Shown here one piece after another: positions 3,127 to 10,525 of a stretch of DNA of 10,593 bases. The notes under the pieces were generated by a model. The model made no database searches, had not been told where the DNA came from, and saw only the letters and a list, made by a program, of their open reading frames with translations. Made by a program: the position numbers and the translations under genes. Source of the DNA: a virus. The first letter of the stretch is position 1. Every line of letters begins with the position of its first letter. Location: the UHGV virus genome UHGV-0266384, one strand, 5' to 3'.

Positions 3127-3324
3127 ATGGTTGCCGTAAATCATATACCACACCTTGTACACACACAAACGGCCTTTGTGTGGCGTTTTCTGGCACTGAG
3201 TGCCGGAGAATCTCAAATCATCCACGTAACCGCCTGGACGGAACGCGAAGCGCGTAGCCGTTGCCCGTCCGGTTGTGTTGCTGTATTCGCCGCCCGTATT
3301 CGTCAGGGGTCACATCATGCGTAA
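3127..3324 (+). CDS. Icd-like small protein (host cell-division inhibitor family), 65 aa
   Basis: Strong SD AGGAG 6 nt upstream of ATG 3127 (the track's longer 3025 start lacks an SD). Motifs FVWRFLALS ... TEREAR ... FAARIRQG resemble the P1 Icd / P4-like Icd-like family as I recall it. A paralogous C-terminus is repeated in the next gene. Confidence 0.5.
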   Translation: MVAVNHIPHLVHTQTAFVWRFLALSAGESQIIHVTAWTEREARSRCPSGCVAVFAARIRQGSHHA

Positions 3325-3781
3325 AAACCGCTTGCAAAAAATTATCACGGGGCTGTATGCTTCCCCCGTCGCCCACATGGCGACCGGGTTTGACAGCCTG
3401 AATACATCTGGCGGACAGCCGCCCACATCCGATAAGCGGTTTTTTTGTGTCCGTAAACCTACCCATACCCGCATTATGGCGGGGCGTAACGGGGGAGCCT
3501 TTGTGCTCGCTGGTTTCCAGATGACCAGTCTGTCAACCCTGTTACGTCTCGCCACCATGTTTGACAGCGTAGTAGCGAGACTCCTTAAAATTCATCTGGG
3601 AGCCTTTCACATGGCTGTATCCGCACGCCCTTATTTTGTCTGGCGCTTTATGCAGTGCCTGACAGACAGTATTGCAATATTCACCGTTACCGCTGCCACT
3701 GAGCGCGAAGCACGTGCACAGCTGCCGCACGCACATCTTATTTTTGTCGCCCGTATTCGCCAGGGGGGGAGTCATGCATAA
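3317..3781 (+). CDS. Ash-like / Icd-like protein (154 aa), or alternatively only the C-terminal 56-aa Icd-like paralog starting at ATG 3611
   Basis: ATG 3317 overlaps the previous stop (ATGCGTAA) with SD AGGGG upstream. The C-terminal 56 aa (YFVWRFMQCL ... TEREARAQ ... FVARIRQGG) are paralogous to the gene at 3127-3324 and have their own SD (GGGAG) and ATG at 3611. The N-terminal 98 codons overlap a repeat-rich, hairpin-rich region, so their coding status is uncertain. Confidence 0.45.
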   Translation: MRKNRLQKIITGLYASPVAHMATGFDSLNTSGGQPPTSDKRFFCVRKPTHTRIMAGRNGGAFVLAGFQMTSLSTLLRLATMFDSVVARLLKIHLGAFHMAVSARPYFVWRFMQCLTDSIAIFTVTAATEREARAQLPHAHLIFVARIRQGGSHA

Positions 3782-4001
3782 AATACCCTTTGATGTTCTT
3801 GTTCATTCTGAAAACGCATTAATCCGCGCAAAGGAAATGGACGCATTACTACTTAAGTTAATTGATGTGCCGGAAAGTGGCGATGAATCTGATTCAATGA
3901 TGTTTTCTGCCGTGCGTACGCTATTAACGCCTGTTATTAATGAATTAAATACAGTGATGGCAATTCACGAGAATAATAAAGCGCAGCACACCGGAGAATA
4001 A
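3774..4001 (+). CDS. Hypothetical small acidic protein (75 aa)
   Basis: ATG 3774 overlaps the previous stop (ATGCATAA) and follows a strong SD GGGGGGGAG. MHKIPFDVLVHSENALIRAKEMDALLLKLIDVPESGDESDSMMF... No family recognised. The track's longer 3672 start is unlikely. Confidence 0.55.
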   Translation: MHKIPFDVLVHSENALIRAKEMDALLLKLIDVPESGDESDSMMFSAVRTLLTPVINELNTVMAIHENNKAQHTGE

Positions 4002-4006
4002 AAAAC

Positions 4007-4306
4007 ATGAAAAATAAAAATTCTGGCGTTACTGCCAGCGGCCCCGCTCGTCCTGAATTTATGAACGGCGATATTTACCGCGATAAATATGGCGGCATGG
4101 TAACGATTAAAGGCGTGGCAGAACGGCGCATCACCTACCGTCGTGAAGGCTACGAATATGATTGCGTGATGCCTGTTTATCAGTTTCGGCGTGATTTTTC
4201 TCTGGTACAGGCAGCGCCCCGCAGTAAACCAACCAGCAGGGAGAAAGCACGCGCCAATATTCAGGAAATAAAAAAGATGCTTAACGTATTCAGGGGTAAA
4301 AAATGA
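4007..4306 (+). CDS. Hypothetical small protein (99 aa), translationally coupled to the primase; possibly DUF4222-like
   Basis: SD GGAGA upstream of ATG 4007; the stop overlaps the primase start (ATGA). The motif YRDKYGGMVTIKGV...RRITYRREGYEYDCVMPVYQFRRDF reminds me of a small prophage DUF family, but I cannot confirm it. Confidence 0.55.
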   Translation: MKNKNSGVTASGPARPEFMNGDIYRDKYGGMVTIKGVAERRITYRREGYEYDCVMPVYQFRRDFSLVQAAPRSKPTSREKARANIQEIKKMLNVFRGKK

Positions 4307-6051
4307 AACTGGCACCGAACGTAAAAAAACAGCCACGCGGAATAAAACACAAAGACACAGAGGTAATTATTTTCGCGGGTAGTGATGCCTGGTCGCACGC
4401 GAAACAATGGCAGGAGCAGGATGGCCCCGCATCCGGCGATAATGTGCCGCCTGTGTGGCTTGGGCCAAATCAGCTTGCCGAACTTGATGCACTGAAAATT
4501 GTTCCGGATGGGAAAAAGCGCGTAAGGCTGTACCAGGCCGGAGAACTGGATTTGGTGGAGACCAAAAAGATTGGTCAGAAGCTGGCGGCGGCAGATATTC
4601 AGGACGCAAATTTTTACCCCGAAGGAATGCACGTCCAGAAGTGTGAAAACTGGCGGCGCTATCTGAATGCTGAGCGTGAAAATATTGCCGCAGGGCTTAC
4701 CATGCCGGAGCAGAAAAATACGCAACTGGCACAAATGGCAGACAGTGAGCGCGCGCAGCTGCTTGCCGAGCGCTTTGATGGCGTTTGTGTGCATCCGGAA
4801 AGTGAAATCGTTCACGTATGGCGCGGCGGGGTATGGTGTCCGGTCAGCACAATGGAACTTAGCCGCGAAATGGTGGCGATCTATTCAGAGCACAGGGCCA
4901 CTTTCAGCAAGCGCGTAATCAATAACGCCGTGGAGGCGTTAAAAGTTATTGCCGAACCAATGGGCGAGCCGTCCGGCGATTTGCTGCCGTTCGCCAATGG
5001 TGCGCTTGACCTGAAAACGGGGGAATTTTCCCCGCACACGCCGGAGAACTGGATCACCACGCACAACGGCATTGAGTACACGCCACCAGCACCAGGGGAG
5101 AATATCTGCGACAACGCGCCAAACTTTCATAAATGGCTTGAGCACGCAGCCGGAAAAGACCCGCGCAAGATGATGCGTATATGTGCCGCGCTGTACATGA
5201 TTATGGCGAACCGGTACGACTGGCAGATGTTTATTGAGGCCACCGGAGACGGCGGGAGCGGCAAAAGTACATTCACCCACATCGCCAGCCTTTTAGCGGG
5301 GAAACAAAACACGGTAAGCGCGGAAATGACATCGCTTGATGATGCTGGTGGGCGTGCGCAGGTTGTCGGGAGTCGTCTTATCGTCCTGGCAGACCAGCCG
5401 AAATATACAGGCGAAGGCACGGGCATCAAGAAAATCACGGGCGGCGACCCCGTGGAAATCAACCCGAAATATGAAAAGCGTTTCACTACGGTAATCAGGG
5501 CGGTGGTGCTGGCGACCAATAACAACCCGATGATATTCACCGAACGGGCCGGAGGCGTGTCACGTCGTCGGGTTATTTTCCGCTTCGACAATATCGTAAG
5601 CGAGGCAGAAAAAGACAGGGAGCTACCGGAAAAGATCGCGGCTGAAATCCCTGTCATTATCCGCCGCTTGCTGGCGAACTTTACCGACCCTGAGAAGGCA
5701 CGGGCTTTACTACTGGAACAGCGTGACGGTGATGAAGCTCTGGCAATAAAGCAACAGACGGATCCGGTTATTGAGTTTTGCCAGTTCCTGAATTTTCTGG
5801 AGGAAGCACGCGGCCTGATGATGGGCGGCGGTGGCGATTCAGTGAAGTACACAACCAGAAACAGCCTTTACCGCGTCTATCTGGCGTTTATGGCATACGC
5901 AGGCAGGAGCAAACCGCTAAACGTGGCTGAGTTCAGCAAGGCCATGAAGCCAGCGGCAAAAGTTTACGGACATGAATATATTACGCGGAGAGTTAAGGGA
6001 GTAACGCAGACCAACGCAATTACAACTGATGATTGTGACGCGTTTTTATAA
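4303..6051 (+). CDS. Primase-helicase, P4 alpha / D5-like SF3 helicase (the PICI pri-rep equivalent)
   Basis: 582 aa. SF3 helicase motifs are present: Walker A GDGGSGKST (about nt 5245-5271), motif B RLIVLAD, motif C VVLATNNNP. It is immediately followed by an iteron array, as expected for a replication initiator. Confidence 0.85.
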   Translation: MKLAPNVKKQPRGIKHKDTEVIIFAGSDAWSHAKQWQEQDGPASGDNVPPVWLGPNQLAELDALKIVPDGKKRVRLYQAGELDLVETKKIGQKLAAADIQDANFYPEGMHVQKCENWRRYLNAERENIAAGLTMPEQKNTQLAQMADSERAQLLAERFDGVCVHPESEIVHVWRGGVWCPVSTMELSREMVAIYSEHRATFSKRVINNAVEALKVIAEPMGEPSGDLLPFANGALDLKTGEFSPHTPENWITTHNGIEYTPPAPGENICDNAPNFHKWLEHAAGKDPRKMMRICAALYMIMANRYDWQMFIEATGDGGSGKSTFTHIASLLAGKQNTVSAEMTSLDDAGGRAQVVGSRLIVLADQPKYTGEGTGIKKITGGDPVEINPKYEKRFTTVIRAVVLATNNNPMIFTERAGGVSRRRVIFRFDNIVSEAEKDRELPEKIAAEIPVIIRRLLANFTDPEKARALLLEQRDGDEALAIKQQTDPVIEFCQFLNFLEEARGLMMGGGGDSVKYTTRNSLYRVYLAFMAYAGRSKPLNVAEFSKAMKPAAKVYGHEYITRRVKGVTQTNAITTDDCDAFL

Positions 6052-6065
6052 TTTTTTGTAAAAGT

Positions 6066-6289
6066 CCTCTACCCCATCCACCTGAATGAAATAAACGCAT
6101 ATTATTCAACATGATAAGTGGGTAGAGGGCTAGGTAGAAGGCTAATAAAACCTCTCTACCTCTTCTACCATGATTAAGATCGTTTGTGAGGGGCGGGTAG
6201 AGGATGGGTAGAGGGCCACGAAAGCCCTCTACCCATCTGAAAGCCGCGCCATTACTGACATGAAAGATGATTAGGTAGAGAGGTAGAGG
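6066..6289. repeat. Iteron-type replication origin (candidate ori): at least 9 copies of GGTAGAGG / CCTCTACC
   Basis: GGTAGAGG or one-mismatch variants at 6121, 6133, 6196, 6207, 6274 and 6282; CCTCTACC or variants at 6066, 6151-6170 and 6226. Includes the perfect inverted pair GGGTAGAGGGC-7nt-GCCCTCTACCC (6206-6234). AT-rich spacers lie between the copies. Confidence 0.7.
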
Positions 6290-6337
6290 AGGTGCACCAC
6301 AACCTAAAACTTTTTAAACACGAGAGTAAAAATAAAA

Positions 6338-6616
6338 ATGCACACATCAGGAAGATTTAACAAATCACTCAAAAAACGCAAAGACAGAACAGCACCAAGA
6401 TATAAAGCGCTGGAGATGACAGAGCACGCCTTAAAGGTGGCTATAAAGGTGATAGACATCACAGCGGGAGAAGGATACTCGAAAGCACATCCCGAACTAA
6501 TAAGCGCATTCATGACCACGGCGGCGGCAAACTTTGCCACGCTGACAGAGCGGGAGATTGCAGAAGCGGAACAGGTAACAACCATCAACGTTAAAACCGG
6601 AGAGCAGACAGCATGA
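6338..6616 (+). CDS. Hypothetical protein (92 aa), translationally coupled to ssb
   Basis: The ORF's stop overlaps the ssb start (ATGA). No family recognised and the start codon is uncertain (weak SD). Confidence 0.45.
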   Translation: MHTSGRFNKSLKKRKDRTAPRYKALEMTEHALKVAIKVIDITAGEGYSKAHPELISAFMTTAAANFATLTEREIAEAEQVTTINVKTGEQTA

Positions 6617-7023
6617 CAGCACAGATAGCGGCTTACGGGCGGCTGGTGGACGACCCGCAGGTAAAACAGACCAGCAAGGGCACACCAATGACGCTGGCAC
6701 GTATGGCGGTATCGTTGCCATGTAGTCAGGCGCAGGATGGGCAGGCTACGTTATGGCTATCGGTGATGGCATTTGGTAAGCAGGCCGACTTCCTGGCTAA
6801 ACATCAAAAAGGCGACGTTGCCAGCGTATCCGGCACGATGCAGGTCAGCCAGTGGACCGGACAGAACGGGGAAACGCGGCAGGGTTATCAGGTTATTGCA
6901 GACAGCGTAATCAGTGCCCGTGCGGCACGTCCTGGCGGGAACAGACGCAAAACCACAGGCACACAGGGTAATCAGCCACCAGCGGGAGGCGATGACCCTT
7001 ACGGTGATGATATTCCGTTCTGA
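6613..7023 (+). CDS. ssb: Single-stranded DNA-binding protein (phage-type SSB)
   Basis: 136 aa with an OB-fold-like N-terminal region and a Gly/Pro-rich tail ending in the hallmark acidic C-terminus ...DDPYGDDIPF (E. coli SSB ends ...DFDDDIPF). Confidence 0.8.
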   Translation: MTAQIAAYGRLVDDPQVKQTSKGTPMTLARMAVSLPCSQAQDGQATLWLSVMAFGKQADFLAKHQKGDVASVSGTMQVSQWTGQNGETRQGYQVIADSVISARAARPGGNRRKTTGTQGNQPPAGGDDPYGDDIPF

Positions 7024-7311: not shown

Positions 7312-7334
7312 AGCCGGAGTAATCCGGCTTTTTT
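7312..7334 (+). terminator. Rho-independent terminator
   Basis: AGCCGGA-GTAA-TCCGGCT followed by TTTTT. Confidence 0.8.
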
Positions 7335-7340
7335 GTACCC

Positions 7341-9167: not shown

Positions 9168-9581
9168 ATGGCAACGAATGAAAGCATCATGGCGCTACCG
9201 CTGGCGAGTAAATTTAAAGCCGAAGCGCGGGCAATGGCTGACAGAGGGTTATCAACCTACGAGGCCGTATATCAACTCAACAAACTGGAAGAACAGGACA
9301 AGCCGCGCGCTGATGCGATTATGGCGCTTCATGAACATAACGACTATCAGCCGCTGTTACGTGCAATGGCAAACGTGCCATGTATTAGCGTCGATAATGC
9401 TCGTGAAATCCTGAACATGACCATAGAGCAGGAGCGCCCAAAGGTTGCACCAGAGCTTACCGCAGCCTTTGAAAACTTTATGGACATGCACAGCCCGCAA
9501 GCCGTATCAGCTGGCATGGCATACGATGGCAGAAACCAGGGCGATGACGGCGACATCGATCACATACTGAAAACCATCTGA
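9168..9581 (+). CDS. Hypothetical protein (137 aa), last gene before cos; possibly packaging- or head-related
   Basis: Strong SD GGGGGA upstream of the ATG; followed by a strong terminator. No family recognised and no clear match to lambda FI or FII. Confidence 0.6.
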   Translation: MATNESIMALPLASKFKAEARAMADRGLSTYEAVYQLNKLEEQDKPRADAIMALHEHNDYQPLLRAMANVPCISVDNAREILNMTIEQERPKVAPELTAAFENFMDMHSPQAVSAGMAYDGRNQGDDGDIDHILKTI

Positions 9582-9587
9582 GACAAG

Positions 9588-9611
9588 GCCGGAGAAATCC
9601 GGCTTTTTTTT
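9588..9611 (+). terminator. Rho-independent terminator of the capsid operon
   Basis: GCCGGA-GAAA-TCCGGC followed by eight T residues. Confidence 0.85.
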
Positions 9612-9830
9612 ACGGGTCCTTTCCGGCATATGGACCCGTTACGGGGCGGCGACCTCGCGCGTTTTCACTATTTATGAAAATTTTCCGGGATCCATGTCCG
9701 GTTTCTCTGCAAGTTAACCATATGAAAAATATAAAAACATGCTTTCTATGAACCGGACATGCGCAAAAAACAGACACTAAAACCGGACATCGTACCCGTT
9801 AACCGGAAGTGTGCAAAAATCACACGCATT
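9609..9830 (+). other. Lambda-type cos site, copy 1: cosQ-like, cosN, and cosB with R-like repeats
   Basis: TTACGGGTCCTTTCCGG ... GTTACGGGGCGGCGACCTCGCG ... GTTTTC(A)CTATTTATGAAAATTTTCCGG is near-identical to the lambda cos junction as I remember it. The 12-nt cohesive end GGGCGGCGACCT is at 9644-9655. Downstream there are three or four AACCGGACAT(G/C)-type repeats in both orientations (9691-9826), consistent with terminase small-subunit binding sites. Confidence 0.8.
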
Positions 9831-10099
9831 GCTGCGCGTGATTAACAATTTATCGGCTTTACTGTTCTGTATAGGCTGGGTGGCGTCATGCCGTAGCCGT
9901 TCTCCGTGCCAGCATGGAATAATCCGTAGTTACAGAGCGGTAAAGTTAAAAATCACTTTCTGTTACGCCATCAAATACGCGATACAACAACCATGTGTTT
10001 TTACAAAACCATTTGATATCATTGAATTTTTTCACATTAATGACATCAAAATACATCGTAAGGTTGTTGTATTTATTTTATTTTTACCTTACTTATCAA

Positions 10100-10213
10100 T
10101 TAGATATACCAAACAATTAAACAACAACCACCCCCTCAAAAAATCTCATAAATAGCGAAAAACCGCGAGGTCGCCGCCCCGTAACGGGCCATAATTCCAG
10201 GAAGGACCCGACG
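10100..10213 (-). other. Second lambda-type cos site (copy 2) in inverted orientation, with a divergent cosB-side flank
   Basis: The reverse complement reads CGGGTCCTTCCTGG ... CCCGTTACGGGGCGGCGACCTCGCGG TTTTTCGCTATTTATGAGATTTT. cosN is identical to copy 1 over 25 bp (10164-10188 against 9635-9659), with the GGGCGGCGACCT complement at 10168-10179. The flank beyond TATTTATGA differs (GAGGGGGTGGTTGTTGTTTAATTG...). Confidence 0.75.
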
Positions 10214-10243
10214 ACACCAGACTATCAGAGCGATGGGGGCACA

Positions 10244-10525
10244 ATGACAGAAGCCGAACTACTGGGATTAATCCGCCGCGTTACCGGAATCAGCCAGCAG
10301 CATGACGAACAGGCCACACAGCCGGACAGCGTGACCGCTGAAAATTATGTGCGTGTTGTTGCTGAGGTGATGCGCCGTGATGGTATAGAACTTAATGGCG
10401 TGGATATGCGCAACATACGAACCAGAGTTCTTGAGTTGCTGGCCTACCGTCGCCGCGTGGAGATGTATCGGGAGAAGGAGAAAATAACGTACCACTGGAA
10501 GAAGCCGGAACGACTGCGTACGTAA
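10244..10525 (+). CDS. Hypothetical protein (93 aa) immediately distal to the cos region
   Basis: SD GGGGG upstream of ATG 10244; the stop is embedded in a 17-bp perfect palindrome CGTACGTA-A-TACGTACG (10517-10533). No family recognised. Its position next to cos suggests a packaging-related role, but this is not supported by sequence. Confidence 0.5.
   Translation: MTEAELLGLIRRVTGISQQHDEQATQPDSVTAENYVRVVAEVMRRDGIELNGVDMRNIRTRVLELLAYRRRVEMYREKEKITYHWKKPERLRT

Follow-up and report, generated by a model that had tools for sequence, protein, structure and literature searches.

An iteron array just 3′ of a P4 alpha-like initiator gene as the very probable replication origin of an EcCICFT073-type island of Escherichia coli

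The closest described counterpart of the locus considered here is the replication module of EcCICFT073, a phage-inducible chromosomal island (PICI) whose rep-ori segment, carried on a temperature-sensitive plasmid, required rep for maintenance at 44 °C (Fillol-Salom et al. 2018, ISME J, PMC6092414). In that test the pri-ori plasmid was maintained and the pri/rep mutant plasmid gave no colonies, while deletion of the ori, which belongs to the other of the two iteron subtypes described below, gave significantly fewer colonies, a reduction and not an abolition of maintenance (PMC6092414). The supplementary deletion primer covers the end of the gene homologous to our initiator gene together with the first two iterons (PMC6092414), so the "pri" of that study is the homologue of the gene at 4303-6051. 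Later work counts an "ori downstream of pri" among the standard features of PICIs (PMC10111431). In the SaPIs, iteron binding by Rep hexamers relies on a C-terminal winged helix and needs no ATP, and these iterons flank an AT-rich region on both sides (PMC9371898). The P4 record annotates type-1 repeats (TGTTCACC) in both ori and crr, the latter directly 3′ of the alpha gene; read along the initiator gene, P4 ori runs as two repeats, an AT-rich spacer, one inverted repeat, and three repeats. A literature search for TGTTCACC itself returned only unrelated primer sequences. Classical plasmid iteron origins, of the pSC101, R6K, and F type, have direct repeats of ~17-22 bp, DnaA boxes, and a RepA-type winged-helix initiator.

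The stretch of DNA analysed here (viral genome UHGV-0266384, 10,593 bp, hereafter the window) is identified by its gene content as a Gram-negative PICI of the EcCICFT073 type, from E. coli and situated beside tRNA-Pro. The features on which the comparison turns are the following:

196-272: tRNA-Pro gene
473-1732: tyrosine integrase gene
3355-3404 and 3472-3559: C4 antisense RNA of the P4/P1 type (72.6 bits), with a1/b1 target sites upstream
4303-6051, plus strand: initiator gene (582 aa, annotated "DNA primase family"), preceded by a DUF4222 gene
5758-6024, plus strand: region coding for the predicted C-terminal winged-helix origin-binding domain (aa 486-574), homologous to PDB 1KA8
6338-7023, plus strand: conserved orf92 (phrog_1231) and a single-stranded DNA-binding protein (SSB) gene, the downstream replication module

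The SSB gene is followed by a PerC-family gene, a lambda-E-type major capsid gene, and a head-decoration gene. The window and EcCICFT073 share one order—tRNA-Pro, integrase, AlpA-type HTH, Icd-like, DUF4222, primase-family, SSB, PerC, capsid, decoration—and are 90% identical in nucleotide sequence across 5.7 kb. Further PICI traits are an integrase and attachment site at one end, the AlpA-type regulator, mostly rightward genes, and a length of ~10 kb. EcCICFT073 is inserted between roxA and phoQ, whereas the window lies beside tRNA-Pro and yejM; a 99.8%-identical copy of its origin region resides in E. coli S1-CAM-02-A, between tRNA-Pro/yejM and yejO.

Directly 3′ of the initiator gene lies a dense array of short repeats, separated from the stop codon (which ends at 6051) by a gap of only 14 nt. 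Its anatomy is as follows, "exact" denoting a perfect match to the 8-mer GGTAGAGG:

6066-6073, minus strand: iteron 1, GGTAGAGG, exact; left flank of the AT-rich spacer
6075-6082, minus strand: decayed iteron, GGTGGATG; intact GGTAGATG or GGTAGACA in relatives
6083-6118: AT-rich spacer (75% A+T), candidate DNA-unwinding site between opposed iterons
6121-6128, plus strand: iteron 2, exact
6133-6140, plus strand: iteron 3, GGTAGAAG
6153-6160, minus strand: iteron 4, GGTAGAGA
6162-6169, minus strand: iteron 5, GGTAGAAG
6196-6203, plus strand: iteron 6, exact
6207-6214, plus strand: iteron 7, exact; inside the left arm (6206-6216) of an 11-bp inverted pair
6226-6233, minus strand: iteron 8, exact; inside the right arm (6224-6234) of that pair
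6237-6257: non-iteron block CTGAAAGCCGCGCCATTACTG, between iterons 8 and 9; 20 of 21 positions invariant in 10 relatives
6274-6281, plus strand: iteron 9, GGTAGAGA
6282-6289, plus strand: iteron 10, exact

The repetition is far beyond chance. GGTAGAGG has six exact matches in the window, all within 6066-6289 (6066-, 6121+, 6196+, 6207+, 6226-, and 6282+), against a mean of 0.14 in dinucleotide shuffles, none of 200 of which reached six. At one mismatch or fewer the window holds 13 matches, 10 of them in the array, where 6133+, 6153-, 6162-, and 6274+ join the exact copies to give six iterons on the plus strand and four on the minus strand in 224 bp. The six-nucleotide core GGTAGA/TCTACC is more discriminating still: all 10 of its occurrences in the entire window fall inside 6066-6289. 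A decayed 11th copy, CATCCACC, occupies 6075-6082, the site at which relatives show CATCTACC. Within pairs, adjacent iterons are spaced 8-12 bp apart, about one helical turn. The first-pass annotation of this DNA had described at least nine copies of an 8-mer in both orientations within about 225 bp, immediately 3′ of the initiator gene, and these points are borne out. Its 11-bp perfect inverted pair is likewise present (GGGTAGAGGGC at 6206-6216 and GCCCTCTACCC at 6224-6234, with 7 nt between the arms), alongside a second perfect pair of 13 bp (6119-6131 with 6223-6235). The AT-rich spacers that it also described hold for 6083-6118, which ranks in the top 2% of 36-nt windows for A+T content, but not for the remaining spacers, which have 56-67% A+T, or for the loop of the inverted pair, which is GC-rich (36% A+T).

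Comparison with related loci demonstrates that the iteron cores are selectively conserved. In relatives, positions within cores are 83-98% identical to the window, versus 44-76% elsewhere in the spacer between the genes (Fisher p 6e-5 to 1e-7); cores were defined from the window alone for this test, which avoids the circularity of cores defined by their conservation. The non-iteron block at 6237-6257 stands out against the same background, the other spacer positions of these relatives being only 44-76% identical to the window. Tabulation of the window and 20 further E. coli and Shigella loci, 21 in all and one of them a capsid-forming PICI, showed that the cores keep their offsets and orientations. 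CFT073 itself has 11 GGTAGA cores in its 288-bp spacer, out of 12 in the entire 14.5-kb locus. The resemblance to EcCICFT073 covers both layout and neighbourhood: the array lies immediately 3′ of pri-rep among the same genes, Rep is 90% identical, the spacer measures about 286-288 bp, the core is GGTAGA, nine core positions are common to both, and the block CTGAAAGCCGCGCCATTACTG and the flanks of the spacer are shared.

Within this conserved frame, the 21 loci fall into two subtypes, defined by the two bases that follow the core and by the middle of the array:

Subtype A: GGTAGA-RG; middle of the array 2(+) 2(-); eight loci, including this window, O157:H7, O55:H7, and others
Subtype B: GGTAGA-YA; middle of the array 1(+) 3(-); 13 loci, including CFT073, CE10, ATCC 25922, Shigella flexneri, and others

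The window accordingly differs from EcCICFT073 in iteron bases 7-8 (RG instead of YA) and in the middle of the array (2(+) 2(-) instead of 1(+) 3(-)), and its second left iteron has decayed. The subtype has a correlate in the initiator. Over the last 142 residues of the protein, A and B types differ at ~4 positions, three of them clustered, such that a VA[E/D]FSK motif accompanies GGTAGA-RG in eight loci and VN[D/E]FGK accompanies GGTAGA-YA in 13. All 21 loci are consistent with this pairing, though they represent few lineages, and the co-variation may reflect just one or two evolutionary events. Between the window and CFT073, the predicted recognition-helix residues in question change as A542N, E543D, and S545G. 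The earlier suggestion that the iteron sequence defines replicon specificity and could serve as a typing marker is thereby upheld in part, and gains the observation that subtype tracks predicted recognition-helix residues in 21 loci of few lineages.

What kind of protein would read these iterons? In sequence terms the product of 4303-6051 classifies as a P4-alpha-like helicase-initiator. It is 90% identical to EcCICFT073 Pri-Rep and matches D5_N, DUF5906 (the SF3-helicase core), and, weakly at its C-terminus, Pox_D5 in Pfam. Residues 141-571 align with residues 326-756 of P4 alpha at 41% identity over 432 residues (E 4e-112), and the helicase region matches the SaPI5 PriRep structure (PDB 7OLA; E 2e-14). 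Its last ~90 residues can be aligned from end to end with the solved structure of the P4 alpha origin-binding domain (PDB 1KA8; E 4.5e-7). A predicted third helix has the subtype-specific residues A542, E543, and S545 at its beginning, and in winged-helix domains the third helix is the usual recognition helix. The helix boundaries (541-555) come from a low-confidence model (single-sequence AlphaFold; C-terminal domain pLDDT 57), predicted without a deep alignment because a homologue search with the initiator retrieved only E. coli and Shigella proteins of 98-100% identity. On this model we infer that the VA[E/D]FSK stretch, which aligns with "SLKMFG" of P4 alpha, forms the first turn of the recognition helix. 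The N-terminus offers fewer landmarks. Residues 1-150 have no Pfam match, nothing in the N-terminus aligns with the primase domain of alpha (residues 1-325), and reading by eye revealed no Toprim-type acidic motifs in the N-terminal domain (1-140, window 4303-4722). The corresponding model is again of low confidence (single-sequence AlphaFold, pLDDT 60), its structural matches being generic alpha/beta folds. As no known primase domain is recognisable in the first 140 residues, "primase-helicase" is an annotation label rather than an established property. Where the first-pass annotation used this term, its helicase half agrees with the 41% identity to P4 alpha and the match to 7OLA, but its primase half finds no matching domain.

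Beyond E. coli and Shigella, homologues with 53% identity in Serratia aquatilis and Morganella morganii also show a comparable array directly 3′ of the gene, with the layout kept but built of TGTTCAC and TGTTCAT, repeats that resemble the type-1 repeats of P4. The initiator's protein cluster is present on just a few contigs, and a scan of genome contigs with the initiator yielded three loci, too few for a statistical test of co-variation. As in P4, where the crr cluster lies directly downstream of the initiator gene, the 8-bp iterons occur in both orientations, and the initiator resembles alpha in its helicase and origin-binding domains (41% identity). An AT-rich spacer holds the equivalent position in P4 ori and in the CFT073, Serratia, and Morganella relatives. 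In CFT073 and Serratia, layout and orientation of the first half of the array match those of P4 ori, of which the window is a 2/2 variant. The second half (two iterons, one inverted, a block starting with CTGAAA, and two more) is reminiscent of a crr unit of P4, which has CTGAAA between its repeats; as evidence this likeness is weak. Aligned in a shared register, the iterons form a series from P4 (CTGTTCACC) through CFT073 (CTGTCTACC) to the window (CCTCTACC): the P4 iteron TGTTCACC has 4/8 bases in common with CCTCTACC of the window and 6/8 with TGTCTACC of CFT073. Unlike the single 224-bp cluster of the window, ori and crr of P4 are several kb apart (about 4.7 kb between annotated repeat clusters), and alpha has a primase domain (residues 1-325) to which the window initiator has nothing similar.

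The SaPI origins (SaPIbov1, SaPI1, SaPI5) provide a second, more distant parallel. They too lie immediately 3′ of rep, comprise 6-12 short iterons with at least two in opposed orientation on each side of an AT-rich region, and are served by a self-loading SF3 helicase initiator with a C-terminal winged helix (PMC9371898; also the 7OLA match). Their iterons, however, are 5-6 bp long and of unrelated sequence, their hosts are Gram-positive, and similarity of the initiators is detectable for the helicase core alone (E 2e-14). The window reproduces the flanking arrangement of the PICI/SaPI module: 6066(-) and the decayed 6075(-) on the left, the spacer 6083-6118, then 6121(+) and 6133(+) on the right. 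The left set here comprises one intact and one decayed iteron, where relatives have two intact copies, and this copy of the origin could be weakened as a result. Plasmid origins of the pSC101, R6K, and F type are a poor match to the window, with its 8-bp repeats in both orientations and its SF3 helicase initiator, and reading the spacer sequence by eye turned up no good DnaA box.

Together, these comparisons make it very probable that the array is the replication origin of this EcCICFT073-type PICI. The first-pass annotation had proposed a candidate satellite origin, and the proposal is strengthened by the positional match to the EcCICFT073 intergenic region that contains the tested ori, by the homology of the C-terminal domain to 1KA8, and by the conserved cores. 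Since the element belongs to a described PICI family, the origin is not new; its class has already been described and functionally tested in a 90%-identical relative. A different assignment would make the array mainly a regulatory or accessory initiator-binding region, whether crr-like, engaged in copy-number "handcuffing," or an operator of orf92-ssb-perC, with initiation taking place elsewhere. Such a role has precedent in the position of P4 crr directly downstream of alpha, and would suit both the crr-like appearance of the second half and the location of the array upstream of the next genes. Yet the first half is built like P4 ori, AT-rich spacer included, no sigma-70-like promoter was found in 5900-6500, and the rest of the window, which lacks the GGTAGA core altogether, offers no other cluster that could be the true origin. 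Deletion of the CFT073 ori, moreover, impaired replication (PMC6092414), and on this balance a purely accessory role is improbable.

A still smaller probability attaches to the idea of a DNA or RNA hairpin made by the inverted copies, working as a transcription terminator, small RNA, or RNA stability element, with the repetition being incidental. The 11-bp perfect stem at 6206-6234 invites it, as do the long-range helices that RNAalifold proposed with 10 "compensatory" pairs. Every predicted helix, however, turned out to be an iteron paired with an inverted iteron. All iteron copies switch subtype together, and it is because of this joint change that the pairs appear compensatory; the same joint change is seen in direct-repeat copies, between which no pairing is possible. 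Such concerted change is more in keeping with sites read by a protein in trans than with a folded nucleic acid. The stem beyond the cores is not kept in relatives, no T-tract follows it, and in 6052-6337 a terminator scan found nothing and Rfam gave no match. Least probable of all, to the point of being negligible, is a packaging site (a cos or pac accessory) or a recombination site: PICIs of the EcCICFT073 type do carry the cos of their helper phage, and terminases bind repeats near cos, but the exact lambda cosN 12-mers of the window are elsewhere (9644 and 10168), the left end holds the integrase and the tRNA attachment site, and the repeats track the C-terminal domain of the initiator and no packaging gene.

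Taking the array as the origin, a plausible course of initiation can be outlined. Upon induction by a helper phage, the island would make the initiator (4303-6051), whose C-terminal winged-helix domain would read the 8-bp iterons through the GGTAGA core and the two subtype-specific bases. Opposed iteron sets bracket the 36-bp AT-rich spacer at 6083-6118. Initiator hexamers probably form to either side of it, open the duplex there, and go on to act as self-loading SF3 helicases, and the separated strands would be coated by the SSB that the island itself encodes next to the origin. Primers could be supplied by host DnaG or by the N-terminal domain of the initiator. A broader synthesis is also possible, although we hold it to be somewhat less probable than its negation: the Gram-negative PICI origin could be a compact, fused P4 replicon, its ori-like and crr-like halves joined within 224 bp and its alpha homologue having lost the primase domain, with two orthogonal classes in E. 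coli, GGTAGA-RG and GGTAGA-YA, set by the three residues where the recognition helix begins. The 2018 description treated the PICI and P4 replicons as independent (PMC6092414); the fused arrangement, if true, would tie them to a common ancestor.

Among 5,426 complete genomes, about 560 contain matches to the origin region, with up to four places in a single genome; the array would mark where replication begins in a satellite very common in E. coli. These results leave the current picture of PICI replication as it was. They make modest additions: the subtype to which the iterons of this allele belong, its association with three residues of the initiator, and the homology of initiator and array layout to P4 alpha and P4 ori, with no alpha-type primase domain found. 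In practical terms, the bases flanking the GGTAGA core together with the three initiator residues could be a simple typing marker for replicon subtype, and the natural pair of subtypes amounts to a ready-made system for asking how a winged-helix initiator reads its iterons.

Several further observations concern individual carriers and other parts of the island. In E. coli S19-651 (NZ_CP075852.1), four places match this origin region. The two copies examined occupy different chromosomal sites, both without capsid genes, and have identical initiators and type-A origins; identical origins therefore coexist when integrated. A 32.5-kb circular "plasmid" record, CP088587.1, contains a capsid-forming PICI (terminase, portal, protease, capsid) with a type-B Rep-ori module. 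It was considered as evidence of autonomous replication and set aside: the chromosomal genes clcB, mlc, and pntAB flank the PICI, and the record probably stems from an assembly artefact or from a segment of chromosome that was circularised or over-replicated.

Within the window, the C4 antisense RNA adjoins Ash- and Icd-like genes, an RNA immunity system of the P1/P4 type inside a PICI. Near it, a 48-nt direct repeat (3286-3333 and 3743-3790, 75% identity) overlaps the starts of successive open reading frames of the Icd-like/Ash region, and may represent duplicated translation-start or RNA-target regions. Two hairpin and T-run elements, 7313-7338 and 9588-9613, are 92% identical (GCCGGAG[T/A]AATCCGGCTTTTTT), lie 3′ of the PerC gene and of the open reading frame at 9168-9581, and look like intrinsic terminators. 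The exact lambda cosN 12-mers (GGGCGGCGACCT) at 9644(+) and 10168(-) are in opposite orientation and sit within a 72-nt inverted repeat (9613-9684 and 10139-10210, 83% complementary). CFT073 aligns directly to window 10138-10509 and in inverted orientation to 9613-9878, and the island appears to bear two cos-like segments facing each other.
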